64,000 nucleotides of DNA from Oscillospiraceae bacterium (GCA_015063985.1 SVTC01000011.1:6613-70612), one strand, 5' to 3'; positions 7,034 through 26,454 are shown, counted from the first letter of the stretch. Notes: generated by a model not told the origin, from the sequence alone. Numbers and translations: made by a program.

Positions 7034-7262
7034 AACAAATCAAAACAATTCCGCAAGCTTTGAAACCAAGCTTCAGCGCCTTGAAGCGGTGGTAAAGGCT
7101 TTGGAGGATTCCTCCACCGCCCTGGACGACAGCCTCAAGCTCTTTGAGGAAGGCGTGGGCCTTGTAAGAGAATGCTCAAAAATGCTGGACGATGCACAGA
7201 AAAAGGTAAAAAGACTTACCCGCAACGAAAACGGCGAAATAGTGGAAGAGGATATGGACTAA
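7026..7262 (+). CDS. xseB: Exodeoxyribonuclease VII small subunit
   Basis: The internal ATG at 7026 (MPETNQ...) overlaps the xseA stop by 8 nt. The motif FETKLQRLEAVVKALE...LFEEGVGL is typical XseB. Confidence 0.85.
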   Translation: MPETNQNNSASFETKLQRLEAVVKALEDSSTALDDSLKLFEEGVGLVRECSKMLDDAQKKVKRLTRNENGEIVEEDMD

Positions 7263-7267
7263 AGAAT

Positions 7268-7304
7268 GATCCCCGACAGCATAAGCTGTCGGGGATTTCA
7301 TTTT
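7268..7304. terminator. Hairpin between convergent xseB and the 1882-aa gene
   Basis: The stem gatccccgacagc/gctgtcggggat has an ataa loop and a T-rich tail on the plus strand. It sits exactly between the two convergent stop codons. Confidence 0.55.
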
Positions 7305-10300
7305 AAAATGCATTAAAGATCAAGGTAATCACTCTCTTTTGCTCGTCGTATACGTAGGAATAACTTCCCTTAAGACGAAGAGTCTTACTGAGATTATAGT
7401 ACTTTATGATCTCTCCTATACGTTTTTTGGTGACCAAAGCTTCAAAGGTATCCTTGAAGACCCCATCGTTTGCAAAGCTGAGCTGAACGTAAAGCTTTGA
7501 CGCGCTTATACGCTTGCAAACGATATCACGGACCGCTTCAAAGGAGAATTCTTCAAAATACAGACCGTTTCTCACAAAATAGTTGCATTTTGTGGCAGTA
7601 CATTTAGGCAAGGGAAGCTCGTCCTCGGGGATGTGGTCGGGCAATGCGGTAATGTACTTATCGGTGACGCAGAACAGTGCGTAGCTTATTCTGTCGGACA
7701 CGTTTTTCTTTTTATCCGTATTTGAATGGTCGCCCCAGGTGGTATCAAGGTGATAGTATTCACCCTCCAGCTTGACTACGTTCCAGGCGTGGGTATCACT
7801 TGTCACGTATACGCAGGAGATTCCCAAAAGGTTCAGCAAATACTGAGTAGCCTTTGCATATCCCGCACAAACTGCTTTTTTATCTGCAAATACTCCCCAG
7901 ATGCTGCGCAGATCGTCGGGCTCTGTGACCTTGTACTCCCGCTTCTCCTGCTTTTCCAAGCTTATGGTATCGTAATCCACCAGCTTAATTATATTCTCAT
8001 AAACTCTGAGCGTGACCTCGTAGTCACTCATGGTGCTGTCAACGGAGCTTAAGAAGGGCTTTATCGCCTTGTCAATAACCGCGTTGCGCTTATCCGCCTC
8101 TTCTCGGGTCATACAGTACTTGAATTCCAGTGCCTTAACAAGGCCCGTGGCGACATTGAGACGAACCGAACAGCCCTGATTGTACCAGAATATCTCGGGA
8201 TGATCGTTGGTAACGTAATGAACGGCTCTGAACACTCTCTCCTTGGGAAGCTCCGCCGGCAAGGGCTCGATACAGGTCTTGAAGCTTGTCAGTGCATCAA
8301 GAATAGCATCGTAAAGCTTTTTTTCAACCTCGTCCAACAGAGAATAGCAGTATCTTTCGGGCTCTCCGGCAATTCTCTTGGCGGGGCCCTTTAAAGAGGA
8401 GGTGTCCTCGATGGGCTCCTTTCTCTTTTTGGGTACGGGCTTGGGCAAGGGTGTGGTTTCGGCAGGCACGGTATAGCTCACGTTACCGCAATACTCCGGC
8501 TCCAAAGGAAGCTTCGGATTCATAAAGGGAGTGGGCTTTGTGATGACCGTTCCCAAGCTGAAGCCGTAATTTGCCTTGTATCTCAAGAAGCCTCTGCCGT
8601 ATTCATCGTTTCTGAAGGCGGTTATCAGCTCTCTTCGCTTTGCCGCTGCGGGCTCGTTTATGAGGTAAGCGTACTGGATCTCCGCCCACTTTGCCATTCC
8701 CTCATATACCTCAAGATAAAGCTTCTTTCCGTAAGTCTTTTTAATCGCCTTATCGTTAAAGTTGAGATATTGCCAGATATGGGTAAGCTCGTGGCATACG
8801 GTGAGAGCCGCCGCCATTCTCGGTGCCGAATTCTCTACCATAAGCGTATAGCCGCTTTTATCCTTTATGGCAACGCCCAGCACTCTGCCGTCCGTCTTGG
8901 GCGACGGGATAAACGCCTTACCCAGCTTTTTGTTAAGCGTGGCGGTGTTTACCGTACTGACCTTAATACCCACGTCAATACGAATGCCGAAAAAGGCCTC
9001 CATATTTCTTTTTACGTCTTCAAAAAGCTGCCTGAACTCGTCAACTGTCTTTATGGCGCTTCTTGAGCAGCACAAGCATCTGTCTCTTCCGTCTCCAAGA
9101 GTCTCGTATTCAACTCCGTAGATCTCGCAGCCGCAGAAATCGCAATAGCGTACGTCGGGCTTTCCGGGTCTGTAGCTTGCTTCCACTGCGGCAGCTATAT
9201 CTCCAGATTCTCTTACCTGTCTGAGGCTTGAGGAATCCATTCCCAAGCGGCAAAGATATTCGAGGGTAGCGGGCGCATCAACGTCCTCCGGCTCGAAGCT
9301 TCCGCCGTACAAGAGGTAATAACGCTTCTCGTAGGGCTTGCGCTTGAACATCTCCTCTTCATCCTCGGAGTCGGACTCTTGCTCTGCCTCAAAAGGCTTC
9401 TCGTTGGGGAGCAAGGGCTCATCGGCGTGAGCTTCCTCGGGCTTCGGCTCCTCGGGCTTTGGCTCCTCGGGCTTTGGCTCCTCGGGCTTAGGTCCCTCAG
9501 GCTCGGGCTCCTCGGGCTTGGGTTCCTCGGGCTTGGGCTCCTCAGGCTTAGGCTCCTCGGGCTTGGGCTCTTCGGGCTTGGGCTCCTCGGGCTTGGGCTC
9601 CTCGGGCTTCGGCTCCTCAGGCTTGGGCTCCTCGGGTTTGGGCTCCTCGGGCTTGGGCTCCTCGGGCTTAGATTTCTTTTTAAAGATCGAAGCAAAGAAT
9701 TCCTTTATCCTCTGCCACAGACTCTTCTTATCCTTCTTATCCTTCTTCTTATCCTTCTTCTTAGTCTTCTTTTTATCTTTTTCTTCCTTTTCGGGCTCTT
9801 CCCCGTCCTCGGGCAGGGGCTCGAATTCTATGGGAGGCAGAGGCTCGGGCTTTGGAGCAAGGCTCTCCTCCAGGGTATCGTTATGCCAGGAAATATAATC
9901 GCAGACGATCTTCATTATCCTCTCCAGATTTCTTTCCACGGCAACGGTCAGACCCAGATCGAGCTGGCTATCCTCGATAAAGTAAATGCAGTTTTTCTTC
10001 AGCTCCTCGGACTCCGACTCCAGCGAGTAGGTAAGTGGATGGTCTTCCTTTCCCTTAACACCGCAAACCGCACTGATATAGTGGGAATTTTCGGCAAAAA
10101 GGGTACGGAACACCTCGTTGAACAACAAGGTCATTGTGTAGCATACCGAATCCGTAAGGCTGCCCGACAGCTCGGGAAGCTCCACGCAAAGCACCTCTTT
10201 GTTTCTGTAAACTCTCTGAGGTATGGGGCTCTCCTCACTGAAGATAACTCTCTTGGCTTTGGCAAAATCGTTGTAGCGATCCATTCTGAAATAACCGGGA

Positions 10301-12951
10301 GTATCTACGCTGATATCGCAGAACAGCTTCCTTATCGTCATTTCACCTATGGTCTGCACCGCACCCGCACAATCCTGCGCCTTTGATGCACCGATGGTAT
10401 ACCTTCTCAGCTGTCTGTAGCAGGGACGGGAGTTGATATGATCAGCCGCACGGCGAACAAGCACCTGACCCTTAGCGGTAAGATTGGTCATCTGGTAATA
10501 CTTGCCGCCAAAAGTAAAGAACTGTCCGGGCAAAAGCTTTTGATATATATGTCCGCAAAGCTCGCTGCCGAGATAATCTCTGTCGCCCTTTTCGTCCTCG
10601 CAAACGTAGCCCGCACTCTTAAGCTCCTTGGTGCATACGCGGATGAACGCCTCGTCGTCGATGAGCAGAGTAACCTCCGCCCTTCCGTTATTGAGGTTGA
10701 AGCGCTCTCCCTCCTTGATAACGGACGCCGATACCTTTTTGCCCTCGAGACAAAGAGTCCTTCCCTGACATTTTGCTACCGCCTCCCTGTAATTCTCGGG
10801 AAGTGTAAGCACCTCGTCAAGAGAAGCAAAATATTTGTATATTTCAAACCAGAGCTGTGATTTGATGTCGTAGACCTCTATTCCCAGCAGCTCAAGATCC
10901 TTTTTGATCTGCTCGGAATCCGTCTGGTGACGGCAGATGGCAAGCAAGGCACCCAGAACCGTGTTTCTCTCCGTTCTGGTGTGATCTGCCACAATGTAGG
11001 GTATCGCCTTTGCGTCGGCAGTAAATACTCTATCGTTTGCCGCCATATAATCCTTCAGAAGATAATCGCCGCCGATAACGTTGACAAATCCCTGAGAGGT
11101 AGCTCTCGTCGAGAAATCCCTGAGGATCTCAAACATATTAAAGCTCTCATCCTCTACGGTGATATAGGCGTTCTTCTGCTTTGTTGCACTCCACATTCCG
11201 TCGGTGCAGGAGAAGTGATCGTCCATAGCCTCCTGAGAGGTGGGCAATCCGGCATATTTTGTAAGCTCGTAGTAATACTGCTTTGCTATCCAGCGCATAT
11301 CCTTCACGGGGAATGCCTCGCCGCCGTACCATTTGGTGTGGCTGACCTGGTTTTTCAGCGCCGCAAAGCTCAATTCGGTGCCGATTCCCAGATATCTGGA
11401 AACGTTGGGAACAAGACGGTGGTGCAGATGCTCCTCGCCGTTTTCCCAGCACATATAACTGCAGGTACCCTTGTGCTTATCGGTTGCAAAGACCTCGGTA
11501 ATGTCAGTCATCAGGATGTGGCTCATGGCGTCCACCAGTCCGTCGCTGTTTTTGTCGCAAAGACAAAATACCGTTTTCTTGTCTTCCTCGTCCTCCTTGA
11601 TCTTCTTCACAAGAAGGTTCAAGCCTATCTGAGCCGTGCTTACAAGCTTAGTGGGCTCAATTACCACACAGAAGCTTACCTTTTTTATAAAGTCGGAGTT
11701 GGCGTTTCTCAGCTTGTGGTCAAGCACCTGAGATCTGGTTACTATACCGATATCAAGATCCTTTTCCTTGTCCCCGAGAACGCCGATCCTCCACATAAAC
11801 GGAAGCCCCGTAACGGACTCGATACCCTTCTCCAGCCAGGAGATGATCTCCTCCTCCACAGAGTGGCGTCCCAGCACGACCAAAACCTTTGAATGGGCAA
11901 GAAGCGCCTTGTTCATAGGATAGAAGGCATAGGGTATGAGATCGTTATAAAAGGGGTTGTTGAAGAGCACGCTCCTTCCGTTGCAAAGCTCGTTGGAGGC
12001 ATTGATGTAGTTTCTGTCCAGCTCCACTCCCTTGCGGTTGAGCTTATCGTAGAACAATGCGAAGTTCACCGTTGACTGATCGGAGCTGTTGCCCAGCTCC
12101 TTGATAAGATCTCCCACGGTCAGCTCTCCGGAAAAAGAGTTATCTACAGTGGTATTCTCGCTTAACAGTCTGTCGGAGAAAAGATTGCGCAGGAACTTTC
12201 TTATCAGAGAATAGTTTACTGTCTTGTAGGCATCCTCGTCCTCTCCGATTATATCCACCGTATATTCCCTTTGGGTGGCACCGTCCAGGAAGAAATACAA
12301 TTCTCCGATGATGATAACACCGAATACCGGATAAAAAACACTTTCCAGCAGTCCGTTATAGAACAAATAGCGGCTGATGATCATAAGACCAACGCCCATC
12401 ACTACGGAGGTCCAGTAAAAAACCTTCAAAAAGCTTCTTGCCTGGGCATAGCTGTCCTTCAGGCACCAAACCGATTTCTGGGAAAAGAAGCCGTAAAACT
12501 CCTTGGATATCCTGTCAAAGATAAAGGTTCCCGGAGCTATCCTCTTCTTCATTATTCTCAAAGCTATCTTTTTGATTATGATATATATTCCCAGCAATGC
12601 CGCATTGGCAAGATAGAACACCCAGAACTTAAGATCCAATCCCGCTATCACAGACCTTATAAGATCTGCAAGCCAATTGAATGCCGAAGCCAAAAAGCCG
12701 GGCATCCACGAGAAGGAGGCAGGAGCCGCTATCCATCCGCTGAGAGAATTAAGAAGCCACATTATCAAAGAGCAGACAAAGCCGTTGATCCATGCCGCAA
12801 TGGGAATATAGATCAAGGCCACTACCACCGTCAGGGGCTGTCTGGCTCTGTCGGTCTTGTCAAGATTTGCCTTGTGGTTCTTTCTGCACAACCATATAAA
12901 GGGAAGAGAGATCAATAAAAGCTTTAAAAGCATTATTAAAAAATCAATCAT
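7303..12951 (-). CDS. 1882-aa polytopic membrane protein with Lys-rich/PEEPK linker, zinc ribbon, HExxH zincin-like module and transglutaminase-like cysteine-peptidase core
   Basis: This is one uninterrupted ORF. About six hydrophobic helices lie in aa 1-230, and no motif is recognised in aa 230-1040. A KKTKKKDKKKDKKDKK stretch and about 15 PEEPK units follow (DNA 9436-9669). Next come CDFCGC...CLCC (DNA about 9063-9150) and HELTH (8779-8793) with EGMAKWAE downstream. The C-terminal core is C-H-D: AVCAGYA (Cys codon 7867-7869), THAWN (His 7789-7791) and HLDTTWGD (Asp 7744-7746). The start overlaps the upstream stop by 8 nt. Confidence 0.85.
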   Translation of the reverse strand: MIDFLIMLLKLLLISLPFIWLCRKNHKANLDKTDRARQPLTVVVALIYIPIAAWINGFVCSLIMWLLNSLSGWIAAPASFSWMPGFLASAFNWLADLIRSVIAGLDLKFWVFYLANAALLGIYIIIKKIALRIMKKRIAPGTFIFDRISKEFYGFFSQKSVWCLKDSYAQARSFLKVFYWTSVVMGVGLMIISRYLFYNGLLESVFYPVFGVIIIGELYFFLDGATQREYTVDIIGEDEDAYKTVNYSLIRKFLRNLFSDRLLSENTTVDNSFSGELTVGDLIKELGNSSDQSTVNFALFYDKLNRKGVELDRNYINASNELCNGRSVLFNNPFYNDLIPYAFYPMNKALLAHSKVLVVLGRHSVEEEIISWLEKGIESVTGLPFMWRIGVLGDKEKDLDIGIVTRSQVLDHKLRNANSDFIKKVSFCVVIEPTKLVSTAQIGLNLLVKKIKEDEEDKKTVFCLCDKNSDGLVDAMSHILMTDITEVFATDKHKGTCSYMCWENGEEHLHHRLVPNVSRYLGIGTELSFAALKNQVSHTKWYGGEAFPVKDMRWIAKQYYYELTKYAGLPTSQEAMDDHFSCTDGMWSATKQKNAYITVEDESFNMFEILRDFSTRATSQGFVNVIGGDYLLKDYMAANDRVFTADAKAIPYIVADHTRTERNTVLGALLAICRHQTDSEQIKKDLELLGIEVYDIKSQLWFEIYKYFASLDEVLTLPENYREAVAKCQGRTLCLEGKKVSASVIKEGERFNLNNGRAEVTLLIDDEAFIRVCTKELKSAGYVCEDEKGDRDYLGSELCGHIYQKLLPGQFFTFGGKYYQMTNLTAKGQVLVRRAADHINSRPCYRQLRRYTIGASKAQDCAGAVQTIGEMTIRKLFCDISVDTPGYFRMDRYNDFAKAKRVIFSEESPIPQRVYRNKEVLCVELPELSGSLTDSVCYTMTLLFNEVFRTLFAENSHYISAVCGVKGKEDHPLTYSLESESEELKKNCIYFIEDSQLDLGLTVAVERNLERIMKIVCDYISWHNDTLEESLAPKPEPLPPIEFEPLPEDGEEPEKEEKDKKKTKKKDKKKDKKDKKSLWQRIKEFFASIFKKKSKPEEPKPEEPKPEEPKPEEPKPEEPKPEEPKPEEPKPEEPKPEEPKPEEPKPEEPEPEGPKPEEPKPEEPKPEEPKPEEAHADEPLLPNEKPFEAEQESDSEDEEEMFKRKPYEKRYYLLYGGSFEPEDVDAPATLEYLCRLGMDSSSLRQVRESGDIAAAVEASYRPGKPDVRYCDFCGCEIYGVEYETLGDGRDRCLCCSRSAIKTVDEFRQLFEDVKRNMEAFFGIRIDVGIKVSTVNTATLNKKLGKAFIPSPKTDGRVLGVAIKDKSGYTLMVENSAPRMAAALTVCHELTHIWQYLNFNDKAIKKTYGKKLYLEVYEGMAKWAEIQYAYLINEPAAAKRRELITAFRNDEYGRGFLRYKANYGFSLGTVITKPTPFMNPKLPLEPEYCGNVSYTVPAETTPLPKPVPKKRKEPIEDTSSLKGPAKRIAGEPERYCYSLLDEVEKKLYDAILDALTSFKTCIEPLPAELPKERVFRAVHYVTNDHPEIFWYNQGCSVRLNVATGLVKALEFKYCMTREEADKRNAVIDKAIKPFLSSVDSTMSDYEVTLRVYENIIKLVDYDTISLEKQEKREYKVTEPDDLRSIWGVFADKKAVCAGYAKATQYLLNLLGISCVYVTSDTHAWNVVKLEGEYYHLDTTWGDHSNTDKKKNVSDRISYALFCVTDKYITALPDHIPEDELPLPKCTATKCNYFVRNGLYFEEFSFEAVRDIVCKRISASKLYVQLSFANDGVFKDTFEALVTKKRIGEIIKYYNLSKTLRLKGSYSYVYDEQKRVITLIFNAF
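9436..9669 (-). repeat. 15-bp in-frame tandem repeat encoding (PEEPK)n, about 15 units
   Basis: The plus strand reads cttgggctcctcggg-like units back to back. Unit-to-unit differences are mostly third-position synonymous (AAG/AAA; CCC/CCA/CCG/CCT). One variant pair encodes PEEPEPEGPK. Confidence 0.95.
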
Positions 12952-14974: not shown

Positions 14975-15024
14975 TGTTTCACCTTCCTTTGTCTAAAGTC
15001 GCGGGTCTGATCCCGCAGCCCTTA

Positions 15025-18000
15025 TCACAGAGCCTGAAGATCGTGACCGTTGGGCAGAAGCTGATCGACCAAGCGCTTGATGCACTTATGGATAGCAACA
15101 AGAGCATCGTTGCTTTCGGCGGGAACACCCATAGACAGGAATTCTCCCACCTCGGCAGATCTATAGTTTTCAAGAAGCAGATTGTGCTGCTTGACCACGA
15201 TCTGTGCCATATGGATCTTAACGTCATTGGACTTCTCCTTGGCAGAGATCTGGTGCTCGATGGCGTTGATTATAGCCTCGGTCATGGAACGGATCTCGTC
15301 CACGTCCTCGGATACCATCAGAGAATTGTAATAAATGATCGGGATCTCAAATACGGAGGTCGGTCTTGCATCACTGTTGGCAAGCTCGGGGATATTGGCA
15401 TCGTGGAACATCTTCCTTCTGGAAAGACCTGCCAAAGCCTTTGCAAAGTTGGAGTTATTAAATCCGGCACGGCTTCTTCTGTCCTCCTCGCGCTGCTTCT
15501 CTGCAATGCACTTGATGGACTTAACGGCCGCACGGTCAAAGTAAAGACTGTCAAGCACCTCGTCAAACTTATCGCAGAGAGTTCCGTTACTTACGGTAAA
15601 GTTCTTGGGATTATCATGCTCGTCATAGTAACGGTATACAAGAGTTCTGTCATCGTACGCAGAGGGCTGATATCTCTGGATGGTGTTGTAGATAAAGCCG
15701 TAGAAGAACGCCTGATGGATATCCTGCATCAGATGTGTCTGATAATCCAGATCAAGCTCGGGCATAACGGAAATGGAGTTCCAGCTCTTGTCGATATGGG
15801 GAGTGATAAGAGCATTGAGCTTGCAATCGGGGCCGATGTTCTCCATATACTCCTGGTAGCTTGTGAAATAGTCGCCAACCTCAACGTTGCTGTCGATAGA
15901 GGCAATATCCACGCACTTGCTCAGCTCATCCTTGTCCATAGAGGGGCTGCAGAGCTTGGCAAGCTGAATGGGAGTCAGACCGTAAACGGAGCGGAAGAAG
16001 TGGAGCTCATACTTGGAAATGGAGGGAGCTGAGTTCTTTTCCTCGAGAAGCTTGTTGACCTGCACTCCGGAGAAGTCACAAAGCTTATCGCTGTATGCAA
16101 TGGCATTGACCTCTCTCTCCTCGTCAAAGTCGTTCTTACTGATAGAGGGAGCGGCAAGGTTCTTACCTCTGTTAAGCATCTTTACGATGTAGTTGAGGAC
16201 CTCCTCGTTCTTTCCTCTGAGAGCTCTGAAGCGATTCTTCTTTTCGTCGCTTTCGCTCTGCGCGATCTTCAGATCGCAGCTTGTTTCGTATTCAAGCTTC
16301 ATAGCCTGAAGAATATCCTTGTCGATAACGTTGTCGCAGACCTTTTCCACTGCTTCCTTGTAGGAATTGATGATGACGTCGTCGAAAATGTCAATAGCCA
16401 CCTCGGAGGAAAATTCGTCGAACATATTCATTTCGTCTATAAGGGTGTTCTCACAGATGGCCTTGAAGATATCGGCGTAAAGCTGATCGGTAGAGCCCTC
16501 TCCCTTTGCGGGATTTGCTCTCTTTGCCAAAAGCTCGAGATATTCCTTCTTACCGAAGAGATTGTATACACAGTCACCGGTCTTGTACTTGAGCTCGCCG
16601 ATTATATCGTCACGCATCTTCTCGATGGTAAACACCTTGGACTGGAATGCATTGTAGAACTTCTCGTAGGTGTCGCAGATCATATCCACGCGCTTGAGAG
16701 CGATGGAGATGATAACGGAGTTTACAAGCTTGGTATATGCATCCTTGACCTCCTCGTAGAAGGAGTTGAGCTTCTTACGGCAGAAGGCGATCTCCTCTGC
16801 GTTCTTTTCCTGCTGACCCTCGTTCTTCTTGGATGCCATCATATCGATGGAGATACACATCTGGCTGAGGTTGGTCTCGTTTCCGCCTACGCCCTTGATG
16901 TTGAATTCCTTCTGCTTTTCGGGATCCTGAGGATTGATAATAGCATTGATGGTAGAGGAAAGCTCCGCTCTTTCGGGGGGAAGGTTCTTCTTCTGAGCCT
17001 CCTTCAAATATGCACTGAGCTTGTAAAGCAGGTATCTTGCGGCGTTGGGATGCATTGCACGGTTTCCGCCGGAGAGATATGCTCCCAGTCTGTGGGGCTC
17101 AAGAGTCTTGCCGATAATATCCTCGCTCTCGAAGAGCTCCTTGATAAAGCTCTCGGTCATCTTCTTGATCTTACCGGAATGGTCGATAAATCGGCTGAGA
17201 CGGTCAACGTCGCTGAAGGCCTTTGCATACTGACCTATCATGGGGCTTACACTGTCGGCAAACTGATCCATCTTGTCCTTGTAGCTGGTCAGATCCTCCT
17301 CACTGAGAGTAAGGTTGGAGCCGATAATATTCTTCGCTCTTGTGGAGATCGCCTCAAAATATTCCTTTGCAGCCTCCTCCATGCAAGCTGTGAAGGGATC
17401 GCCGTCGTCGCCTGCAACTGCCGGCTTATTCTTCAGAAGGTCTGCCTTTCTTTCCAAAAAGTCCTTCTTCAGATCAAGAGTAAACTGATCGCTTCCGGTC
17501 TCCACGTAGCTTACGTAGCGGTCTCTGAGCTTGGGCTCGTCGTTGGACGCCATGGGATCGTTCATCCACTTGGTGTATTCCTTGTTGAACTTGTTATCGT
17601 AGATCATCCAGGATCTTTCGATGGCCTTTTCTCTCTGCTCGTCGGTCATATCCTTGGCAGAGGAAACGCCCATTATGGAGTTCTGCGCCCAATCCAATGC
17701 TATGTAGTCCCTGATCTTCTCATAGGGATAACGGATGATAGCCGCGCCTGCTCCGCCAAAACGGCATCTGCCCAGCTTTTCGGGGTTGGAGAATTCCTTT
17801 ATAACGTTATCCTCCTTGCTGTTTGCGGAGGATTTCATGGGTCCTATGGTCTGCTCGTAGATACACTGAGCCGCATAGTTCTCATACTGCTTGAGGTTGC
17901 CCATATTCTTTTGGTTGGAGTCGCTTCTCTCCAGAAGGAACAGGAAGTCGAAGGGAAGGTTGGAAAGATTCTCCATTCCGTTGCCGGAGGGAACGCTGAT

Positions 18001-18747
18001 GTGCAGATCCTTATATCTCTTCAGTCTGGGCTCGTACTCGAAGGCGTTGGATGCCTTCATCATAAAGGCGTTGATCTCCTTTATGGTGGCGTAGCCGTTT
18101 CTTCTCTGGCTCTTTCTTTCGCTGGCGGAATCGATAACGGTATCCATAACGCTGGGCATTACGATAAATCCGCGGATTATAGCGGCAGATTCGGGATAGT
18201 TGTTCTTAAGATACTGACGGATGAGCATTGCAACGGGCAGAGTGATACCGGAGCCTGTTCCGCCGGTGGAGGTGGAGGCGATGATGACCTTCACGGCTCT
18301 GTTTTTATCGGAGCCGTTTTTCATATAAAGGCTGTCGATAGCCTTGTACAAAGCGGCGATCTTGCCCTGCTTGATGGTGGCGTTAAGAGCAAGACGGCTG
18401 ATGGCTCTGACCTGACCGGCGCCCTCGCTTACGGTCTTACCGTCCAGGATCTTGTTCTCGGGGAACCACTCGTTCTTGGCAACGGTGTCGTTTCTCAGAT
18501 AAGCGGCAACGCTTCTGGAGGAGGAGGTCTGGATAGCAACGATGCTGGGGCCGTTTTCTATCCTCTCAAGGTCGTTAACGTCGGTATCCATGGTAACGAA
18601 CTGAACGTTCTCCAAGGAATCATATACACAGCGCTCTCTCACGCCCTTGATGATCCTTGATCCTATACCGCCGAGTCCGACAAACAGAGTCGCTTCCACT
18701 TTGTTGGGTTGAAGTCTTTCTTTTTTCATGTTTTGTTCCTCTTTCAT
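15025..18747 (-). CDS. 1240-aa protein with N-terminal tubulin/FtsZ-superfamily GTPase-like domain and about 900-aa helical extension
   Basis: Three motifs fit the superfamily: FVGLGGIGSRI (T1-like GxGxxG), SEGAGQVRAISR (FtsZ T3-like GAG...R) and IIASTSTGGTGSGI (core of the tubulin signature GGTGSG, DNA 18247-18264). The true start is probably the second ATG at 18729, which follows AAAGAGGAA. Confidence 0.75.
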   Translation of the reverse strand: MKEEQNMKKERLQPNKVEATLFVGLGGIGSRIIKGVRERCVYDSLENVQFVTMDTDVNDLERIENGPSIVAIQTSSSRSVAAYLRNDTVAKNEWFPENKILDGKTVSEGAGQVRAISRLALNATIKQGKIAALYKAIDSLYMKNGSDKNRAVKVIIASTSTGGTGSGITLPVAMLIRQYLKNNYPESAAIIRGFIVMPSVMDTVIDSASERKSQRRNGYATIKEINAFMMKASNAFEYEPRLKRYKDLHISVPSGNGMENLSNLPFDFLFLLERSDSNQKNMGNLKQYENYAAQCIYEQTIGPMKSSANSKEDNVIKEFSNPEKLGRCRFGGAGAAIIRYPYEKIRDYIALDWAQNSIMGVSSAKDMTDEQREKAIERSWMIYDNKFNKEYTKWMNDPMASNDEPKLRDRYVSYVETGSDQFTLDLKKDFLERKADLLKNKPAVAGDDGDPFTACMEEAAKEYFEAISTRAKNIIGSNLTLSEEDLTSYKDKMDQFADSVSPMIGQYAKAFSDVDRLSRFIDHSGKIKKMTESFIKELFESEDIIGKTLEPHRLGAYLSGGNRAMHPNAARYLLYKLSAYLKEAQKKNLPPERAELSSTINAIINPQDPEKQKEFNIKGVGGNETNLSQMCISIDMMASKKNEGQQEKNAEEIAFCRKKLNSFYEEVKDAYTKLVNSVIISIALKRVDMICDTYEKFYNAFQSKVFTIEKMRDDIIGELKYKTGDCVYNLFGKKEYLELLAKRANPAKGEGSTDQLYADIFKAICENTLIDEMNMFDEFSSEVAIDIFDDVIINSYKEAVEKVCDNVIDKDILQAMKLEYETSCDLKIAQSESDEKKNRFRALRGKNEEVLNYIVKMLNRGKNLAAPSISKNDFDEEREVNAIAYSDKLCDFSGVQVNKLLEEKNSAPSISKYELHFFRSVYGLTPIQLAKLCSPSMDKDELSKCVDIASIDSNVEVGDYFTSYQEYMENIGPDCKLNALITPHIDKSWNSISVMPELDLDYQTHLMQDIHQAFFYGFIYNTIQRYQPSAYDDRTLVYRYYDEHDNPKNFTVSNGTLCDKFDEVLDSLYFDRAAVKSIKCIAEKQREEDRRSRAGFNNSNFAKALAGLSRRKMFHDANIPELANSDARPTSVFEIPIIYYNSLMVSEDVDEIRSMTEAIINAIEHQISAKEKSNDVKIHMAQIVVKQHNLLLENYRSAEVGEFLSMGVPAESNDALVAIHKCIKRLVDQLLPNGHDLQAL

Positions 18748-18771
18748 ATTTTATTTTTTTGAAAATATTGT

Positions 18772-20895
18772 TCAGATCCTGTTGATTCGAATCTTAAATT
18801 TCACTTCTGCGCCGTTTCCGTTGAAATACTTGATAACGGTCTCGTCTCCCAGTGTAAATACCTGATCGTCCGAGCCTACCGCCTCGCCGTCTATCTTAAG
18901 TCCGGATGCCACGGCAGCGCCCGTTGAAACACCGCTGACCTTTACCGTAGCCGATGAAGCGGAGCGCTTGTAGTTGGGACAGCTCTTGATGCCCGCCGCG
19001 GTAAATATGATAATGCCTACGGAATTGGTGATGCAGATCATTTCATCTATGCGCACCGCAATAAAGTGATCCGCCCAACGCCCTACAGCGGGAAGGTATT
19101 CGCAAAGCTCCACCGTATCAGGGAACACCTTATGCGTTCTCCACCAATAGATCAATGCGGCGATAAGGGCAATGGCAAGCAGGACCAGCAGGCAGATTAT
19201 TACGTATATGCCGAATCTTTCAAACCAGCTTCTGCCCTCCTTGATCTGTACGGTATGGTCGCAGGATCCGCTCCATACCTCGTTTTCCTTAATGTCGCTT
19301 ATGGATATCTTGATATCCACGCTATCGTAATCGTCAAGGATCAGCTCCTGCCCCTCAAGAGTGGGGGTTATTGCGATTATTCCGATCTCGGAGGTCTTTT
19401 CGGCCTTGAAATCGCCCATTTTAAATTTTTCTTCACTGGTAAGAGCGACCTTGATGCTTCCCAGAGAATTCCACTGCTCCTGAGTGAACTCCTTGCCGTC
19501 AAGGGTAAGCTTGAATTTTATGGGATCCTTGGGGTCCAGACCGTCGGCAAAAACGGTGTACTCCGTATCCTCCGACACCTGAAAGCCTATCTCTTTGTTC
19601 TTATATACTCTGTATTCAAGATAAGTGCTTACCGTATTGTATTCAAGATAGCTTGCAGAGGCGCTGATGGTCAGATCTCCCTCTTCAATGGTGATGGTAT
19701 CACCCGAAGCATATTGCTTTTCGTGGGTCACGCCGTTATTTGTGACCGTGGCGGTATAGGTTATATCTCCCAAAAGCTCGCTGTCGGGGACGGCGTTGAG
19801 AGTGCCCGCCTTAACGAAGCCAAACTTCAAGGTGTAGCTTCCTTCCTTAAGTCCGTCGGCGTTTTTGATGATGCTTCCTTCGTTGTCAACCAGAAATGCT
19901 TCGATCTCAACGTTCGGCTTATAGTAGATCTCCACAGTCTTTGCGTTTTTAACGTCTATTGTGTAGTCGCCCGCATCAAAATCTCCCTCAAACTTCAAAA
20001 GCTTTCCCTGAAGACTTTTGTCGTAAACGTAAGGTCTTCTGCTGTATCTTTTGTCAGCCTGTGTGGAATACATTACCTCAACGGGAGAAGCGGAGGAGGT
20101 ATACTCTGCGGACTTCGGTCCGCCGCTGATCTTGCCGATCTCAACGTTTTCGCCCTGAGCAAAGACGACCAGCTCGCTCATGGGAACGTCGAAGGAAAAC
20201 TTCTTGGTCGCCATATTAACGTCAAGCTTATGAGTGTTGAATATTCTTGTGCAGATTCCGGTGATCTTGTTAAGGATCTGGTCACTGGTCGCCGCCTTTT
20301 CGCAATATATATCCTTGCTTTCATCACCGGTGATCATAGCGGCAGAAGCACCCATGCTCAAAAACATCACCTTGACGTCTGAGCTCTTTTCTCGGAAAAA
20401 GGAGTCCGCAACCAAAAGCCCCATATCAAATTCGCCGTCGGTAAGGACAACAAGCCACTTCTCGTCGACCTGAGCGTGGGTAAGATCCTCGTAGGCCTTA
20501 CGAACGGACATAAAAGGAGTTCCCGCATTTTCGGTAATGGTATTGTGAAGTATGTCAACGTTAGCCTGAGTGGGATCGCTTCCCTTTATGGTGATCCTCG
20601 GTCCCACACAATCCTCAAGAGCCAAGTTGTCATAGGCATAATCGTTCATGTAATAGATACTCATCGTATCATTCTTGCCCAGCATTGCCGCAAAAACTTC
20701 CATTGCGTATTTTGCCTGGCACCAGGTGTCGTGATAATTTTCACCGCCGCTGGTCCACATACTGGTAGAATCATCGTATACCACGTTGATCTGACGGCTG
20801 GGCTCAGCGCTTGCCGCTTGCACGGGGAAGCAAAGACAGCTTGCCAAGGTCGCCACTGCAAGTACTATCGCACACAGCCTGAAAAGTCTTTTCAT
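18772..20895 (-). CDS. Secreted, C-terminally membrane-anchored von Willebrand factor A (vWA) domain protein
   Basis: I chose the start at 20895 (MKRLFRLCAIVLAVATLASC) because AGGAGG lies directly upstream. The signal peptide has a possible lipobox (LASC). The MIDAS motif is intact: DDSTS (20761-20775), NAGTPF and VVLTDGE. A long beta-rich region follows, then one TM helix (FGIYVIICLLVLLAIALIAALIYWW) and a tail of about 110 aa. Confidence 0.8.
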   Translation of the reverse strand: MKRLFRLCAIVLAVATLASCLCFPVQAASAEPSRQINVVYDDSTSMWTSGGENYHDTWCQAKYAMEVFAAMLGKNDTMSIYYMNDYAYDNLALEDCVGPRITIKGSDPTQANVDILHNTITENAGTPFMSVRKAYEDLTHAQVDEKWLVVLTDGEFDMGLLVADSFFREKSSDVKVMFLSMGASAAMITGDESKDIYCEKAATSDQILNKITGICTRIFNTHKLDVNMATKKFSFDVPMSELVVFAQGENVEIGKISGGPKSAEYTSSASPVEVMYSTQADKRYSRRPYVYDKSLQGKLLKFEGDFDAGDYTIDVKNAKTVEIYYKPNVEIEAFLVDNEGSIIKNADGLKEGSYTLKFGFVKAGTLNAVPDSELLGDITYTATVTNNGVTHEKQYASGDTITIEEGDLTISASASYLEYNTVSTYLEYRVYKNKEIGFQVSEDTEYTVFADGLDPKDPIKFKLTLDGKEFTQEQWNSLGSIKVALTSEEKFKMGDFKAEKTSEIGIIAITPTLEGQELILDDYDSVDIKISISDIKENEVWSGSCDHTVQIKEGRSWFERFGIYVIICLLVLLAIALIAALIYWWRTHKVFPDTVELCEYLPAVGRWADHFIAVRIDEMICITNSVGIIIFTAAGIKSCPNYKRSASSATVKVSGVSTGAAVASGLKIDGEAVGSDDQVFTLGDETVIKYFNGNGAEVKFKIRINRI

Positions 20896-20957
20896 CTTTC
20901 TCCTCCTGAAAATATACGAAAACAAAAAATCTTCGCAATTATTCATATTAATAATAT

Positions 20958-20986
20958 ATTATACATTTTCTATTAATATTTGTCAA
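20958..20986 (-). promoter_or_regulatory. Consensus SigA-type promoter of the vWA/tubulin-like operon
   Basis: The minus strand reads TTGACA (20981-20986), a 17-nt spacer, then TATAAT (20958-20963), about 60 nt upstream of the ATG at 20895. Confidence 0.7.
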
Positions 20987-21079
20987 TGATTTTAGCCTCA
21001 TATAAGCTCAAAAAAACGGCGGTTTTGTCAACTATTATCAAAGCTTGGCCACATAAGCTTCACAAAGAAAAAACACCTC

Positions 21080-21108
21080 TTGACAAAACGGGTTTTTTTT
21101 TGCATAAT
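21080..21108 (+). promoter_or_regulatory. SigA-type promoter for the divergent 21138 gene
   Basis: TTGACA (21080-21085), a 17-nt spacer ending in TG, then CATAAT (21103-21108). Confidence 0.55.
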
Positions 21109-21137
21109 ATACCCATACCACCAAAAGGAGAAAGACA

Positions 21138-22421
21138 ATGCAAACCAAGCTTATAAAAAGAAAGCCCCTGGGAAACAAGAACAGAAAATACCGCCAGGAT
21201 AACTTTATCATCTCCACCTTCCGTGCAGATACCAACGATCTTCGCCGCGGTATTCCCGCCGCAAAGGAGCTGAATTTCAATATGGTCGAATTCGGCTGGG
21301 TCCCTCCGGAAAGAAGCCTTGAATGTATAGTTGCCTGCGAGCAGGCTGAGATCGACGGCATCTTCCAGAATTGGGAGGCCTTCGGCGGCTTCCAGGAAAC
21401 CAAGGGTATGGGTGGAGTGAACCCGGAAAAGCTTAAGGAATATATCGCCTACACCCAAAAATTCCGCCACGTAAAGGGCTATTACGTTTGGGATGAGCCC
21501 CTTGCCGACGAAAAGATCGCCGCTGCCGCAGAGCAGGTAAAGCTGATAGAAGAGCTTGACCCCAAGAGACTGCCCTTCACCGTTGCCATCCCCAGCTACA
21601 ATCCCACCCACACCTGGGAAAACGGACTCTTTCCCAAGTATCTAAGACAGTATGCCGACGTTATCGAGCCTGCCGTTATGAGCCTTGACTACTATCCCTT
21701 CAGCCCCAGAAGAGCAGATGCACCCGACCAGCTTGACTCCTCCAAGCTCTTTTTGGACATCGCCCTTCTCAGACAGATCGCTCTGGAAAAGGATATGCCC
21801 ATGTGGTTCTACTTCCAGACTCAGGACGATCCCGCCCACGGCACCTACAAATGCCTCAGTCCCGAGAAGATGCGTATGCAGCAGTACAACGCCATCCTTT
21901 ACGGCGCAAAGGGTCTGCAAAACTACAACATCTTCCAGGGTGCACTTAACGACGACGGCACTCCCGGACCTCTCTATTGGTTCACAAAGGACATCAACCA
22001 CCGCTGTATGATGTGGGGCAACACCCTTATGGCGCTCAGTTCCAAGCACGTTTTCCATTCCCCCGAGGTCTTGAAAAACAACCCCAACTTCGATCAGTTC
22101 CGCGAGAGCCCCAAGGACAGCGCGGTGCTCTCTTGCGACGAGCTTCCCTTCCGTTGCTCCGTGGGCGAATTTGAGGACAGCGAGGGCAACGTATATATCT
22201 TCGTTCAGAACAGAGACTACTACGCTTCCCACGTATTCAACCTCCCCTTCAAGACTGCTATGCGTCTCTACGAGGTAAGTCCTCTGGACGGCTTCCAGTA
22301 CGTCTATGCAGACAACACCGAAAGCTTCACCCGCAAAATAGAGCCCGGCGATGCATACCTGTTCAGAGTACAGAAAGCCGATGAGGACGCATACCTTATC
22401 GACTACGTTTTGGAAAAATAA
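21138..22421 (+). CDS. Hypothetical protein, possibly a TIM-barrel glycoside hydrolase
   Basis: A 427-aa ORF with good coding character that neighbours a GH20 enzyme. The alternating beta/alpha pattern and the YVWDEP motif only hint at a glycosidase fold. Confidence 0.4.
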   Translation: MQTKLIKRKPLGNKNRKYRQDNFIISTFRADTNDLRRGIPAAKELNFNMVEFGWVPPERSLECIVACEQAEIDGIFQNWEAFGGFQETKGMGGVNPEKLKEYIAYTQKFRHVKGYYVWDEPLADEKIAAAAEQVKLIEELDPKRLPFTVAIPSYNPTHTWENGLFPKYLRQYADVIEPAVMSLDYYPFSPRRADAPDQLDSSKLFLDIALLRQIALEKDMPMWFYFQTQDDPAHGTYKCLSPEKMRMQQYNAILYGAKGLQNYNIFQGALNDDGTPGPLYWFTKDINHRCMMWGNTLMALSSKHVFHSPEVLKNNPNFDQFRESPKDSAVLSCDELPFRCSVGEFEDSEGNVYIFVQNRDYYASHVFNLPFKTAMRLYEVSPLDGFQYVYADNTESFTRKIEPGDAYLFRVQKADEDAYLIDYVLEK

Positions 22422-26450: not shown

Positions 26451-26454
26451 CTTA

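Follow-up and report, generated by a model that had tools for sequence, protein, structure and literature searches.

A four-gene operon from an Oscillospiraceae bacterium is a real and strictly co-conserved operon of gut and rumen Clostridia, and most likely encodes one membrane-embedded machine of four proteins, the contacts among which we infer. As judged from its sequence, it belongs to a known and predicted class of systems, FtsZl1-vWA, and to the subtype vWA/FtsZl1/B5/B12 within this class. The reading preferred here, given a probability of roughly 0.4, is that the operon is a surface-triggered surveillance or conflict machine. Its largest protein contains a previously unnoticed module, shaped like a helicase but devoid of the ATP-binding loop.

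Organization of the operon

The window (the whole stretch of 64,000 nucleotides that was analysed) carries four minus-strand genes encoding 707, 1240, 676 and 1882 aa between a sigma-70 match and a hairpin, an arrangement already proposed in the first-pass annotation and borne out by the ORF coordinates and by promoter and hairpin scans:

20958..20986, minus strand: putative sigma-70 promoter TTGACA-N17-TATAAT, the sole 12/12 consensus match in 7000-21300 (read directly)
18772..20895, minus strand: gene 1, predicted type-I membrane vWA receptor, 707 aa (MIDAS conservation, Pfam matches in orthologues, hydropathy and charge)
15025..18747, minus strand: gene 2, FtsZl1/Tubulin_2 GTPase-like protein, 1240 aa (Pfam PF13809 and PF00091)
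12944..14974, minus strand: gene 3, predicted cytoplasmic protein with a TM-hairpin anchor, 676 aa (AF2 model, topology from hydropathy and charge)
7303..12951, minus strand: gene 4, predicted membrane-anchored multidomain protein, long form, 1882 aa (co-conserved 3' of gene 3)
7268..7297, strandless: GC-rich hairpin, putative bidirectional terminator (13-bp stem with 8 GC pairs, scored on both strands)

The ORF of gene 1 spans 18772-20946, and its real start is most likely at 20895 (MKRLF), with AGGAGG ahead of it, leading to the 707-aa product; gene 3 starts with GTG. Gaps of 24 nt and 50 nt separate gene 1 from gene 2 and gene 2 from gene 3, respectively. The reported 8-nt overlap of the last two genes (ctttATGATTGAtttt) is confirmed by their coordinates (12944-14974 and 7303-12951), and GGGAGGAG is located 5' of the gene 4 start. 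The hairpin, whose T-tail is weak on the operon strand (CATTCTTT), separates gene 4 from the convergent xseB (7026-7262, plus strand), itself preceded by xseA (5810-7033, plus strand).

Conservation and genomic context

Wherever a locus from the 80 species-level genomes is long enough to be judged, the genes keep the same order on the same strand; the four are therefore one co-conserved unit, as proposed at the outset, in an arrangement far beyond chance. The informative loci span families of Clostridia and Erysipelotrichaceae, and loci found independently via gene 4 or gene 3 homologues display the same four-gene neighbourhood. The overlap between genes 3 and 4 (4-8 nt) recurs in all loci long enough to show gene 4, and this start-stop arrangement suggests translational coupling.

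Relatives are present in at least 209 of 185,579 species representatives, with a patchy distribution and variable genomic locations. The flanks of the window, and those of most annotated loci, consist of housekeeping genes and not of defence islands; some loci adjoin mreB, a PBP or ftsK/spoIIIE, and a TIR+LRR gene is linked to the operon in four distinct loci (five locus records, L022 being a duplicate of L002). Clustering of the flanks revealed no further gene conserved across loci besides the four, and the xseAB neighbours of the window are not kept in other loci. No relatives were found on viral contigs, and PADLOC-DB v2 models yielded 0 matches for all four proteins at E<=0.1. The usual partners of FtsZ, TubZ and MoxR-type systems, whose absence had been remarked upon earlier, are indeed missing from the window flanks and from the conserved flank clusters (no FtsA, SepF, ZapA or TubR genes), and no iteron-like or centromere repeats occur near the operon.

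Relationship to described systems

The architecture had initially been thought to match no described system, which is wrong: gene 2 falls within Pfam Tubulin_2, and its neighbourhood is tabulated in the work that defined the FtsZl1 family (Makarova & Koonin 2010, Biol Direct 5:33; PMC2875224), whose central finding is the FtsZl1-vWA operon and whose prediction for it is a membrane-remodelling system. Additional file 5 of that paper lists vWA/FtsZl1/B5/B12 (zincin and Zn finger, membrane-associated) in two genomes, Ruminococcus lactaris (RUMLAC_01529-01526; 732/1136/678/1418 aa) and 'Bacteroides', now Pseudoflavonifractor, capillosus (BACCAP_04124-04121; 861/1183/658/1435 aa). Compared by description and sizes, both agree with the 707/1240/676/1882 aa of the window in the four genes, their order, strand arrangement and lengths, and both likewise have the gene 3/gene 4 overlap. 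One of the loci collected here, L086, matches the BACCAP sizes (861/1183/658/1433 aa) and is homologous to the window genes. As in the FtsZl1-vWA systems, gene 1 lies immediately upstream of the FtsZl1 gene in all informative loci, with a MIDAS, a signal peptide and a TM helix. The subtype has, 3' of FtsZl1, a B5 of ~660-680 aa and a membrane-associated B12 of ~1420 aa with zincin and Zn finger. Gene 3 corresponds to the 'B5' label of these authors and gene 4 to 'B12', the window's gene 4 being a long form with an extra transglutaminase (TGase)-like module. Makarova & Koonin 2010 do not mention four features described below: the topology, the helicase-like core and TGase module of gene 4, and the cassette exchange. 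The whole cluster thus maps onto a system that is named, and was predicted from comparative genomics, but not onto an experimentally characterised one; no experimental study of FtsZl1 system function was found in the literature.

Tubulin + vWA membrane-proximal systems with inactive NTPase domains have also been described and read as conflict systems (Kaur, Burroughs, Iyer & Aravind 2020, eLife 9:e52696; PMC7159879). These GAP1-N2/DO-GTPase systems resemble the operon in several respects: a tubulin-family protein extended at its C-terminus (the extension, helical or coiled-coil, is only putative in gene 2), a membrane protein whose vWA is extracellular, an organisation close to the membrane, a presence in Firmicutes, and NTPase-like domains predicted to be inactive. 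In contrast to them, the operon contains a single tubulin gene and a single vWA gene where they have two of each, and includes a B5-type 2-TM protein and a helicase-like/zincin protein. Their core component, one or two DO-GTPases of the P-loop TRAFAC type, is lacking, genes 1, 3 and 4 having neither Walker A nor a GTPase Pfam match, and a Pfam scan of the nearest flanking genes revealed no GTPase. GAP1 or fn3 Pfam matches are absent from the four proteins and from the 41 gene 3 and 41 gene 1 orthologues, the presence of GAP1 models in the library being unconfirmed.

Gene 1, a predicted surface receptor

The following features were recognized in gene 1:

20806-20895, minus strand: signal peptide, about residues 1-27/30 (hydropathy and charge)
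20191-20799, minus strand: predicted extracellular vWA domain with MIDAS, about residues 33-235 (MIDAS residues conserved in 41 orthologues)
Residues 236-562: beta-rich stalk
Residues 563-581, minus strand: TM helix (hydropathy and charge analysis)
18775-19140, minus strand: predicted cytoplasmic tail, residues 586-707, ~120 aa (hydropathy and charge)

The protein had been described as secreted; the signal peptide stands, but free secretion does not, and because of the TM helix and the cytoplasmic tail that follows it, gene 1 is regarded here as a predicted membrane-anchored type-I receptor. Among 41 orthologues, four of the MIDAS residues (D41-x-S43-x-S45, T126, D153) are invariant (D41, S43, T126 and D153) and S45 is conserved in at least 90%; P592, directly past the TM helix, is invariant too. 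Pfam VWA is matched by 9/41 and VWA_2 by 4/41. Sortase or pilus features were not found, nor any Pfam adhesin match beyond vWA and Ig-like.

Gene 1 is the fastest-evolving of the four genes, with 28% identity where gene 2 has 71%, and this divergence is counted for the conflict reading as possible conflict-like receptor evolution. The same pattern is to be expected of any surface protein whose exposed ectodomain is under pressure from phages or host immunity. By analogy, the layout is that of integrin alpha-I/beta-I receptors (extracellular MIDAS vWA, beta-sandwich legs, single TM helix and short cytoplasmic tail), with the differences that the gene 1 tail is linked to a cytoskeletal-family protein only genetically, and that the partner is tubulin-like, whereas integrins are actin-linked. 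By hhalign, gene 1 matches the integrin alphaL I-domain weakly (E=0.011), and common ancestry is not proposed for anything but the vWA fold.

Genes 2 and 3, a tubulin-family protein and a 2-TM protein

Two features are located in these genes:

17674-18687, minus strand: tubulin-like domain of gene 2, residues 21-358 (PF13809)
13415-13546, minus strand: predicted TM hairpin of gene 3, residues 477-520 (hydropathy and charge analysis)

Gene 2, predicted to be soluble, is assigned to the FtsZl1 (Pfam Tubulin_2) family by its match to PF13809 (E=1.2e-55, model positions 1-355 of 356), a weaker one to PF00091 (E=4.8e-7), and an N-terminal FtsZ/tubulin-like nucleotide-binding domain with a GGGTG(S/T)G-type T4 signature. 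The T1 loop glycines (G24, G26, G27, G29) and the T4 loop GGTGSG (162-167) are invariant in orthologues. The GTP-binding loops T1-T4 are common to gene 2, the FtsZ of the divisome and the TubZ of the TubZ-TubR-tubC plasmid partition system (type III), but gene 2 is about three times longer, without FtsZ_C or Tubulin_C Pfam match and without partner genes. In the hhalign comparison with E. coli FtsZ, T1-T4 alone align and the T7 catalytic loop does not, thus making a polymerisation-coupled GTPase activity only putative, a caveat likewise raised for FtsZl1 in PMC2875224. Past the tubulin-like domain, the middle of the protein is poorly conserved and the C-terminal region (about 900-1200) is conserved, with a crude heptad score raised at about 441-520 and 641-860. 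Homologues of gene 2 number more than 750, all about 1200-1250 aa long.

The AF2 model of gene 3 (mean pLDDT 85.7) has an N-terminal alpha/beta domain (~1-320) and a small beta domain at the C-terminus, together with a long bundle of helices. Gene 3 has no sequence matches in Pfam or PDB, and its fold has no significant PDB or viral match, the best being the ClyA-type pore-toxin SmhB (E=8e-3). The 'B5' label is also borne by CKL_1669, just 3' of a GTPase gene (PMC2875224); this position resembles the typical one of GAP1, and a possible link between gene 3 and GAP1 is a candidate lead.

The N-terminal ~130 residues of gene 3 co-vary with gene 2. For example, between loci L014 and L054, identity reaches 72% for gene 1 and 79% for gene 4, and falls to 36% for gene 2 and to 31% for the N-terminus of gene 3 (47% for its C-terminus). 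This indicates discordant gene histories, in which gene 2 and the gene 3 N-domain would be swapped as a cassette, and therefore a probable contact between the two proteins.

Gene 4, a predicted helicase-like core with tethered putative peptidases

Gene 4 is composed of five successive parts:

12298..12951, minus strand: predicted membrane anchor of ~5 TM helices, residues 1-218 (hydropathy and charge)
9847..12279, minus strand: MrfA-like SF2 helicase-fold module, residues 225-1035 (AF2 and Foldseek)
9190..9846, minus strand: low-complexity acidic/Pro/Lys linker, residues ~1036-1254 (TRF, orthologue comparison)
8512..9189, minus strand: four-Cys zinc ribbon followed by a zincin-like metallopeptidase, residues ~1255-1480 (conserved ligands, weak Pfam matches)
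7306..8364, minus strand: transglutaminase-like cysteine-peptidase module, residues ~1530-1882 (Pfam, PDB 9crn_A)

Loops 23-41 and 127-173 of the anchor carry 6 and 11 K+R, and by the positive-inside rule the C-terminal 1664 aa, which contain 40 Cys, are predicted to be cytoplasmic. The gene 1 ectodomain would then be the only part of the four proteins outside the cell, genes 3 and 4 being anchored with their bulk in the cytoplasm.

The conserved core of gene 4, missing from the first reading, is the helicase-like module of ~800 aa, modelled by AF2 as RecA-like domains and a beta-rich domain (mean pLDDT 75.9; 50-68 in the second RecA-like half). MrfA/YprA-type DUF1998 helicase relatives occur in DISARM and Druantia. 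The top PDB match in Foldseek is the MrfA DUF1998 helicase 6znp_A (E=6.7e-23, prob 1.00, TM 0.43-0.57); Hel308, DEAD-box and RecQ helicases come next, at about 1e-7. The fold matches that of this helicase type (6ZNP/6ZNQ/6ZNS) over about 800 aligned columns, far better than generic SF2. Unlike MrfA helicases, gene 4 has no detectable sequence similarity to them, no Walker A and no DExH motif II, its module is anchored by ~5 TM helices and fused to peptidases, and its Zn-binding element is a generic zinc ribbon past a disordered linker. The module has no sequence matches in Pfam or PDB (DEAD, Helicase_C and MZB are absent). The Walker A pattern GxxxxGK[ST] was not found in residues 225-1035 of the window protein or in the module of 40/41 orthologues, L042 having one match at the ungapped position; anywhere in gene 4, the pattern is carried by only 3/41 orthologues, the other three matches being outside the module. 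'LFNNPFY' stands at the place of motif I and (I/V)EP(S/T), not DExH, at that of motif II, while 'EVSAT' is motif III-like, and an Arg-rich patch is invariant (R833, R834, H838, R842, R846, R849). The core is accordingly modelled as an MrfA-like SF2 helicase fold without Walker A, and no motor activity is expected of it for this reason. The family of the module comprises 573 clusters at 50% identity, and in most of the top 150 it begins about 200-240 residues in; gene 4 is 40-79% identical between loci.

Every orthologue has a linker, 45-322 aa long (median 218), and its sequence is not conserved. In the window, a 15-nt tandem repeat at 9415-9669 (TRF, period 15; 17 copies, 86% matches) encodes PEEPK units, by 1 and by 5 (1+4) of which alleles otherwise 100% identical differ. 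The ribbon cysteines C1270, C1273, C1292 and C1295 are conserved in 36/36 orthologues, as are H1387, E1388 and H1391 of the HELTH motif, and the downstream E1417 in 35/36. This HExxH with a third zinc ligand defines a putative zincin (Pfam clan MA-like), and weak Pfam matches recur among orthologues (DUF6055 in 26/37, DUF6782 in 19, BSP peptidase in 16, DZR zinc ribbon in 13).

The last module matches Pfam Transglut_core (E=2.8e-5 in the window, down to 1e-10 in orthologues) and PDB 9crn_A, a 'Transglutaminase-like domain-containing protein' (E=7e-40 with a profile, 2e-19 with a single sequence), and a Cys-His-Asp triad (C1695/H1721/D1736) lies within the Transglut_core fold, conserved in 15/15 long forms. 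The C-terminal ~320 aa, triad included, are homologous to 9CRN and to the NCBIfam MAG6410 transglutaminase-related lipoprotein family, whose members, named lipoproteins, are presumably exported; the gene 4 module, by contrast, forms part of a giant membrane protein and is placed in the cytoplasm by the topology prediction. A literature search for 9CRN found no paper that mentions it. The module is absent in 26/41 orthologues and is an accessory of long-form gene 4, shuffled between loci; in L085, a helicase-like+TGase protein is accompanied by a separate zincin+TGase gene. Shuffling of peptidase modules on a constant core, with short and long forms, is counted for the conflict reading. The motif calls made at first reading were all correct, each being invariant or nearly so in orthologues, and purifying selection acts on these catalytic or functional sites (MIDAS, T1/T4 loops, Zn ribbon, HExxH+E, Cys-His-Asp).

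Proposed mechanism and alternatives

The earlier proposal of one membrane-associated machine fits the predicted topologies, polymerisation, coupling across the membrane and protease activity being parts of it that we infer. In the surveillance reading, the fast-diversifying MIDAS vWA of gene 1, held outside the cell on its beta-rich stalk, would bind a surface ligand; candidates are phages, epibionts and other molecules that are foreign or arise from damage. The signal would travel along the TM helix and the conserved tail of 120 aa and reach a membrane complex built by gene 3, with its TM hairpin, and gene 4, with its ~5 TM helices; at this site, the cytoplasmic N-domain of gene 3 would recruit or nucleate GTP-dependent assembly of the gene 2 protein. 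Clustering might then switch on the gene 4 zincin, and the transglutaminase-like cysteine peptidase where present; on their flexible leash of ~200 aa, these would cut proteins of the cell or of the invader. The helicase-shaped module, devoid of Walker A, might serve as a non-motor scaffold or as a nucleic-acid or ligand sensor.

Points counted for this reading are the single unit, the topology, the conserved sites, the discordant gene histories, the patchy distribution and variable locations, the TIR+LRR linkage and the precedent of PMC7159879. Points counted against it are the lack of PADLOC matches and of viral-contig relatives, the housekeeping flanks, a gene 4 conservation (40-79%) unusual for an effector, the existence of only two effector types, a helicase-like assignment based on predicted structure only, the unaligned T7 loop of gene 2, and the other causes of fast ectodomain evolution.

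The main rival, which is rather unlikely, is the machine for membrane remodelling, vesicles or envelope of Makarova & Koonin 2010, in which a polymer tethered by genes 3 and 4 would deform or organise the membrane, the vWA ectodomain would contact the wall or extracellular matrix, and the peptidases would process envelope or complex components. It is the published prediction for the class (PMC2875224), and is consistent with three of the four proteins being membrane proteins, with the housekeeping chromosomal context (including loci by mreB, PBP or ftsK/spoIIIE), with the strict and stable co-inheritance of all four genes, and with the weak resemblance of the gene 3 helical bundle and hydrophobic hairpin to membrane-inserting ClyA-type proteins. 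However, it leaves the helicase-fold module and the zincin and TGase peptidases, all cytoplasmic, without an obvious function, a patchy distribution and variable location are unexpected of a core envelope function, and neither the extreme gene 1 divergence nor the cassette swapping is predicted by it.

An integrin-like role in adhesion or mechanosensing is improbable. Here the gene 1 MIDAS would bind a host, plant-fibre or neighbour-cell ligand and couple attachment to the tubulin-family scaffold, the tethered protease resetting or transducing the signal; the layout of gene 1, the restriction of the system to gut and rumen Clostridia, and an ectodomain diversity that could track ligand diversity would fit, but this is an analogy only, the sortase, pilus and further adhesin features mentioned above are lacking, and the helicase-like module and the gene 2/gene 3 cassette exchange are left unexplained.

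Still less probable is a membrane machine for DNA uptake, segregation or repair, combining a TubZ-like polymer, an MrfA-like helicase-derived DNA binder and a zincin of the DNA-protein-crosslink type. In fold, the nearest match to the gene 4 core is the DNA-repair helicase MrfA, the invariant Arg-rich patch of this core suggests polyanion binding, and tubulin-family TubZ is established to segregate DNA; however, without Walker A no motor activity is expected, no TubR-like gene, iterons, plasmid or phage context was found, the xseAB neighbours in the window are not kept in other loci, and the extracellular vWA receptor is given no role.

Chance adjacency of four unrelated genes has a negligible probability and is effectively refuted by their co-conservation, with order and strand identical in all informative loci from Clostridia and Erysipelotrichaceae, the same neighbourhood recovered from gene 4 and gene 3 queries, and a conserved overlap.

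Within the surveillance reading, a more specific version can be put forward tentatively: the operon may give Gram-positive gut anaerobes a minimal and self-contained device for outside-in immunity or surveillance, in which an integrin-like hypervariable MIDAS receptor at the cell surface directly triggers assembly of a tubulin-family polymer on a dedicated 2-TM tether, thereby switching on leash-tethered cytoplasmic proteases held by an ATPase-dead helicase-derived sensor. If true, FtsZl1, as a branch of the tubulin superfamily, would gain its first assigned function, and bacterial immunity a new logic, thresholding by a cytoskeletal polymer that is driven from outside the cell.

Operon structure and conservation

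Four long ORFs fill positions 7303-20946 on the minus strand (genes 1 to 4, encoding a vWA protein, a tubulin-like Tubulin_2/FtsZl1 protein, a two-TM protein and a giant multidomain protein), and the database entries for their products are MBE6591458-61, annotated as hypothetical proteins in a Ruminococcaceae/Oscillospiraceae MAG. The most plausible start of gene 1 is at 20895 (MKRLF...), with AGGAGG 7 nt upstream, giving a protein of 707 aa. Genes 1 to 3 are separated by gaps of 24 nt and 50 nt, whereas genes 3 and 4 share 8 nt (ATGATTGA), and the Shine-Dalgarno sequence of gene 4, GGGAGGAG, sits within the end of gene 3. Two signals flank the operon:

20986-20958, minus strand, promoter match TTGACA-N17-TATAAT, the sole 12/12 match within 7000-21300
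7268-7297, scoring on both strands, hairpin with a 13-bp stem between gene 4 and the convergent xseA-xseB pair

On the plus strand, 21080-21108 holds a divergent promoter close to consensus (TTGACA-N17-CATAAT, 11/12) that points away from the operon, and the 427-aa ORF downstream of it (21138-22421, plus strand) is without Pfam match.

A distribution scan using one genome per GTDB species recovered relatives in at least 209 species-level genomes of gut and rumen Clostridia, from which 80 loci were fetched (Acutalibacteraceae, Oscillospiraceae, Lachnospiraceae, Ruminococcus, Faecousia, Faecalimonas, Acetatifactor and two Erysipelotrichaceae). According to tblastn with the four window proteins, the order and strand of genes 1-2-3-4 are identical in all loci with adequate contig, each gene missing from the fetched loci falling at a contig end, and the start-stop overlap of genes 3 and 4 recurs across loci. 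The same neighbourhood was met at two loci reached independently via gene 4 matches (P0130 and P0219), and at a third reached via the most divergent gene 3 match (P0317, 23% identity). The first-pass annotation had proposed checking whether the genes co-occur in the same order across genomes, and this is borne out in all informative loci; chance adjacency is excluded by the conserved order and strand. Clustering of flanking ORFs yielded neither a fifth conserved gene nor common flanks: an 83-aa TM+CxxC protein, a ~700-aa multi-TM protein and a TIR-LRR gene occur only occasionally, none of them in the window. The operon is genuine and well delimited, and forms one unit.

Relation to described systems

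Makarova & Koonin (2010) defined FtsZl1, described operons linking it with lineage-specific membrane proteins and with vWA proteins whose MIDAS is intact, and predicted a membrane-remodelling machine for FtsZl1-vWA (PMC2875224). The vWA/FtsZl1/B5/B12 neighbourhoods of their Additional file 5, in which B5 and B12 correspond to genes 3 and 4, are the exact counterpart of the window operon, with 732/1136/678/1418 aa in R. lactaris and 861/1183/658/1435 aa in 'Bacteroides' capillosus; the type strains carrying the four-gene version are, per that table, R. lactaris ATCC 29176 and P. capillosus ATCC 29799 (PMC2875224). Locus L086 has the same gene sizes as the tabulated 'Bacteroides' capillosus neighbourhood. 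The window operon is a long-form variant of this subtype catalogued in 2010, and the headline novelty of the first-pass annotation, an architecture unmatched to any described system, does not hold (Makarova & Koonin, PMC2875224). Our literature searches turned up no experimental work on FtsZl1 function sixteen years after its prediction, and in a 2023 survey Tubulin_2 proteins still served as an outgroup without characterisation.

Kaur et al. (2020) reported Firmicutes/Actinobacteria tubulin+vWA genes within GAP1-N2/DO-GTPase conflict systems, and the genomes in question are not listed in the supplement searched (PMC7159879). Unlike those systems, the window operon has no P-loop GTPase, nor did Pfam show a GAP1 or FNIII signal, and it is therefore not counted as a member of a GAP1-N2/DO-GTPase system as defined. 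The shared B5 label of Makarova & Koonin raises the possibility that gene 3 is related to GAP1.

Domain architecture

All four motif families named in the first-pass annotation were found in the window proteins, so that its description of a four-ORF operon is accurate, apart from two corrections concerning the anchoring of gene 1 and a missed module of gene 4. PADLOC gave no match to the four proteins, NCBIfam and PHROGs scans gave nothing useful, and profile searches of all four families against PDB sequences returned no match except for the transglutaminase-like (TGase) module of gene 4.

In the predicted layout of gene 1, a signal peptide precedes a vWA domain and a beta-rich stalk, and a TM helix at 563-581 leads into a cytoplasmic tail of ~120 aa; the first-pass annotation called the protein secreted, but it is anchored in the membrane and not free. 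Across 41 orthologues, D41, S43, T126, D153 and P592, the last lying just past the membrane on the inner side, are invariant, and S45 is almost so. Pfam detects VWA or VWA_2 in 13 of the 41, with no match in the window copy, and hhalign gives a weak partial alignment to the integrin alphaL I-domain. A DGR or other repeat mechanism behind the variability of gene 1 is rejected, because a template/variable repeat pair is absent near the gene.

Within the tubulin/FtsZ superfamily, no branch is more divergent than FtsZl1. Gene 2 matches Pfam Tubulin_2 (PF13809) over the entire model (E=1.2e-55), with invariant T1 and T4 loops, and its alignment to E. coli FtsZ is weak and partial, covering T1-T4 only (hhalign), in agreement with the published remark that T6-H7 is not identifiable in the FtsZl1 family (PMC2875224). 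Its full-length homologues number more than 750, all of ~1200-1250 aa and from uncultured gut and rumen Clostridia, and a viral-contig scan found no relatives on viral contigs.

In gene 3, an N-terminal part of 476 aa and a C-terminal part of 156 aa, both predicted cytoplasmic, are separated by a TM hairpin, and the confident AF2 model (pLDDT 85.7) puts the hairpin on a long helical bundle, accompanied by an alpha/beta domain and a small beta domain. Neither Foldseek against PDB and BFVD nor sequence searches returned significant relatives; the best fold resemblance in Foldseek, to a ClyA-type pore toxin, is weak (E=8e-3) and is not relied on.

Gene 4 had been described as a dual-peptidase membrane protein, and the motifs of both peptidases are present, but a large third module was overlooked. 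Approximately five TM helices lie at 1-218, which places the other 1664 aa, with 40 Cys, in the predicted cytoplasmic part. Residues 225-1035 are the best-conserved stretch of the entire operon, and their AF2 model (pLDDT 75.9) matches MrfA, a DUF1998 SF2 helicase, at E=6.7e-23, against ~1e-7 for generic SF2 helicases. Walker A is absent from this module, the motif II position reads (I/V)EP(S/T), and a SAT-like motif III is the sole survivor. By sequence, no helicase family was recognised in 41 copies (Pfam, E<=1), and a profile search of the core against PDB sequences gave no match. An exhaustive search of 1.84 billion representatives recovered only 573 clusters, and in most of the best 150 of these the module starts ~200-240 residues in, which indicates that the core family is small and closed. 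The Arg-rich patch 833-849 is invariant, which is suggestive of a scaffold or sensor role for the fold.

After this module comes a low-complexity linker, of 45-322 aa in orthologues and 200 aa in the window, where a 15-nt tandem repeat (9415-9669, 17 copies, 86% matches) encodes PEEPK units and is accompanied by a Lys-rich 12/24-nt repeat (9723-9785). Database alleles of 1882, 1877 and 1857 aa show zero substitutions and differ solely by 1 and 5 (1+4) PEEPK units, reflecting either slippage polymorphism or assembly collapse within the repeat. Past the linker lie a four-Cys zinc ribbon and a zincin domain, in which HExxH and a downstream Glu are invariant, and which shows weak recurrent matches to DUF6055, DUF6782 and BSP. 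The TGase-like module, present in ~37% of gene 4 orthologues including the window's, is homologous to PDB 9CRN (E=7e-40; no paper on this entry was found) and has an invariant Cys-His-Asp triad. Gene 4 could be an ATPase-dead helicase-fold scaffold whose exchangeable peptidases sit on a length-polymorphic leash.

Cassette exchange and module shuffling

Between the window and its nearest fully sampled relative (L084), identity is 71% for gene 2, 53% for gene 4, 44% for gene 3 and 28% for gene 1. Over 1326 locus pairs, the distances of genes 1, 3 and 4 correlate (Spearman 0.66-0.76), and those of gene 2 are discordant with the other genes (0.16-0.47). This discordance is attributable to cassette exchange, as in the pair L014 and L054, where identity is 72% for gene 1, 36% for gene 2, 31% for the N-terminus and 47% for the C-terminus of gene 3, and 79% for gene 4. 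In such pairs the cassette, gene 2 with the first ~130-170 residues of gene 3, has been exchanged between operon backbones. The gene 3 N-domain is consequently read as the likely partner of the tubulin-like protein, and may be the membrane tether of a gene 2 polymer; gene 1 might pair with genes 3 and 4. As far as our searches show, neither the helicase-fold core nor the cassette exchange has been described before.

Peptidase modules are also shuffled: short gene 4 carries a zincin only, long gene 4 a zincin and a TGase, and loci of the Schaedlerella/Faecalimonas type have a helicase-like+TGase protein and, after it, a separate gene for Zn ribbon, zincin and TGase:

L085 9001-15832 (also L031 and L034), gene 4 equivalent with TM, helicase-like and TGase parts, without zincin
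L085-type extra gene, 771 aa, Zn ribbon, zincin (HELTH) and a second TGase module

Genomic context

The window context is chromosomal and housekeeping, and a mobile-element or defence-island setting is rejected because the flanks are housekeeping genes:

xseB side, in order: Na+/H+ antiporter, two 2-hydroxyacid dehydrogenases, aminotransferase, tsaD-like, xseA, xseB
other side, in order: unknown gene, MBL-fold, GH20, Cna_B pilin-like, amidohydrolase, pheT and pheS

This context, together with the strict stability of the operon, favours membrane remodelling, the original 2010 idea and the main rival to the function proposed below; overall, we consider membrane remodelling rather unlikely.

The most divergent version found (L087 3216-15321; 751/1150/714/1121 aa) has several small co-directional genes after it and NERD, bPH and SHOCT genes on its flanks, so that its context appears more island-like than that of other loci. 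In 13 locus records (12 distinct, L022 duplicating L002), the protein of ~83 aa (TM + CxxC...CxxC) is encoded ~70 nt beyond the end of gene 4, often with the ~700-aa multi-TM protein next, and both may be optional accessory subunits. TIR_2 + LRR proteins occur near the operon in four distinct loci (five records, with the same duplicate), a count limited by the short downstream flanks fetched for most loci:

L002 20471-20722, ~83-aa protein
L003 22036-22290, ~83-aa protein
L002 22970-23756, TIR_2 + LRR
L085 17834-19783, TIR_2 + LRR
L034 1732-3714, TIR_2 + LRR
L035 3292-4557, TIR_2 + LRR

About 6 kb from the window operon, a 732-aa ORF (26533-28731, minus strand) combines Cna_B (E=7.5e-28) with a tip-pilin Ig domain of the GBS104 type and resembles surface proteins of the sortase-pilus adhesin type; such tip pilins often have a vWA domain of their own. 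The window further holds several repeats, of which those in a low-GC stretch (48000-54300, 0.38-0.45) look like repeated intergenic or cassette boundaries; its lowest-GC segment is 30000-32300 (0.362), where two minus-strand ORFs (30016-30582 and 30952-31506) have no Pfam match:

50008-50307 and 52563-52862, 300-nt direct repeat, 99% identity
49902, 52452 and 54132, three copies of a 66-nt element
48232, 54198 and 54242; 49951 and 52511, hairpin-containing elements of 48-56 nt
30673-30824 and 32099-32250, 152-nt direct repeat, 91% identity
25751-25893 and 26349-26491, 143-nt direct repeat, 92% identity, between the GH20 gene, which it follows directly, and the pilin-like gene

Proposed function and significance

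Established here are the unity of the operon, the identities of its domains, the conservation of catalytic residues, the topology as predicted, an evolution both fast and discordant, and the shuffling of modules. Beyond these, we infer, with a tentative probability of about 40%, an outside-in surveillance or conflict machine. Gene 1, as a hypervariable extracellular MIDAS receptor, would detect a surface event, and a membrane complex of genes 3 and 4 would pass the signal on; GTP-dependent assembly of gene 2 would be nucleated by the gene 3 N-domain, and the leash-tethered zincin or TGase peptidases would be switched on by clustering, the Walker-A-less helicase fold of gene 4 acting as a scaffold or as a nucleic-acid/ligand sensor. 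Ranked below membrane remodelling, a role in adhesion or mechanosensing is improbable, and one in DNA handling more so.

Owing to its presence in cultured type strains, the four-gene version is a tractable entry point to FtsZl1, whose function is testable in so compact a system of culturable gut anaerobes. Should the surveillance model hold, it would connect a cytoskeletal-family polymer with bacterial immunity or envelope sensing; otherwise the operon would still be an unexplored membrane machine of abundant gut bacteria.
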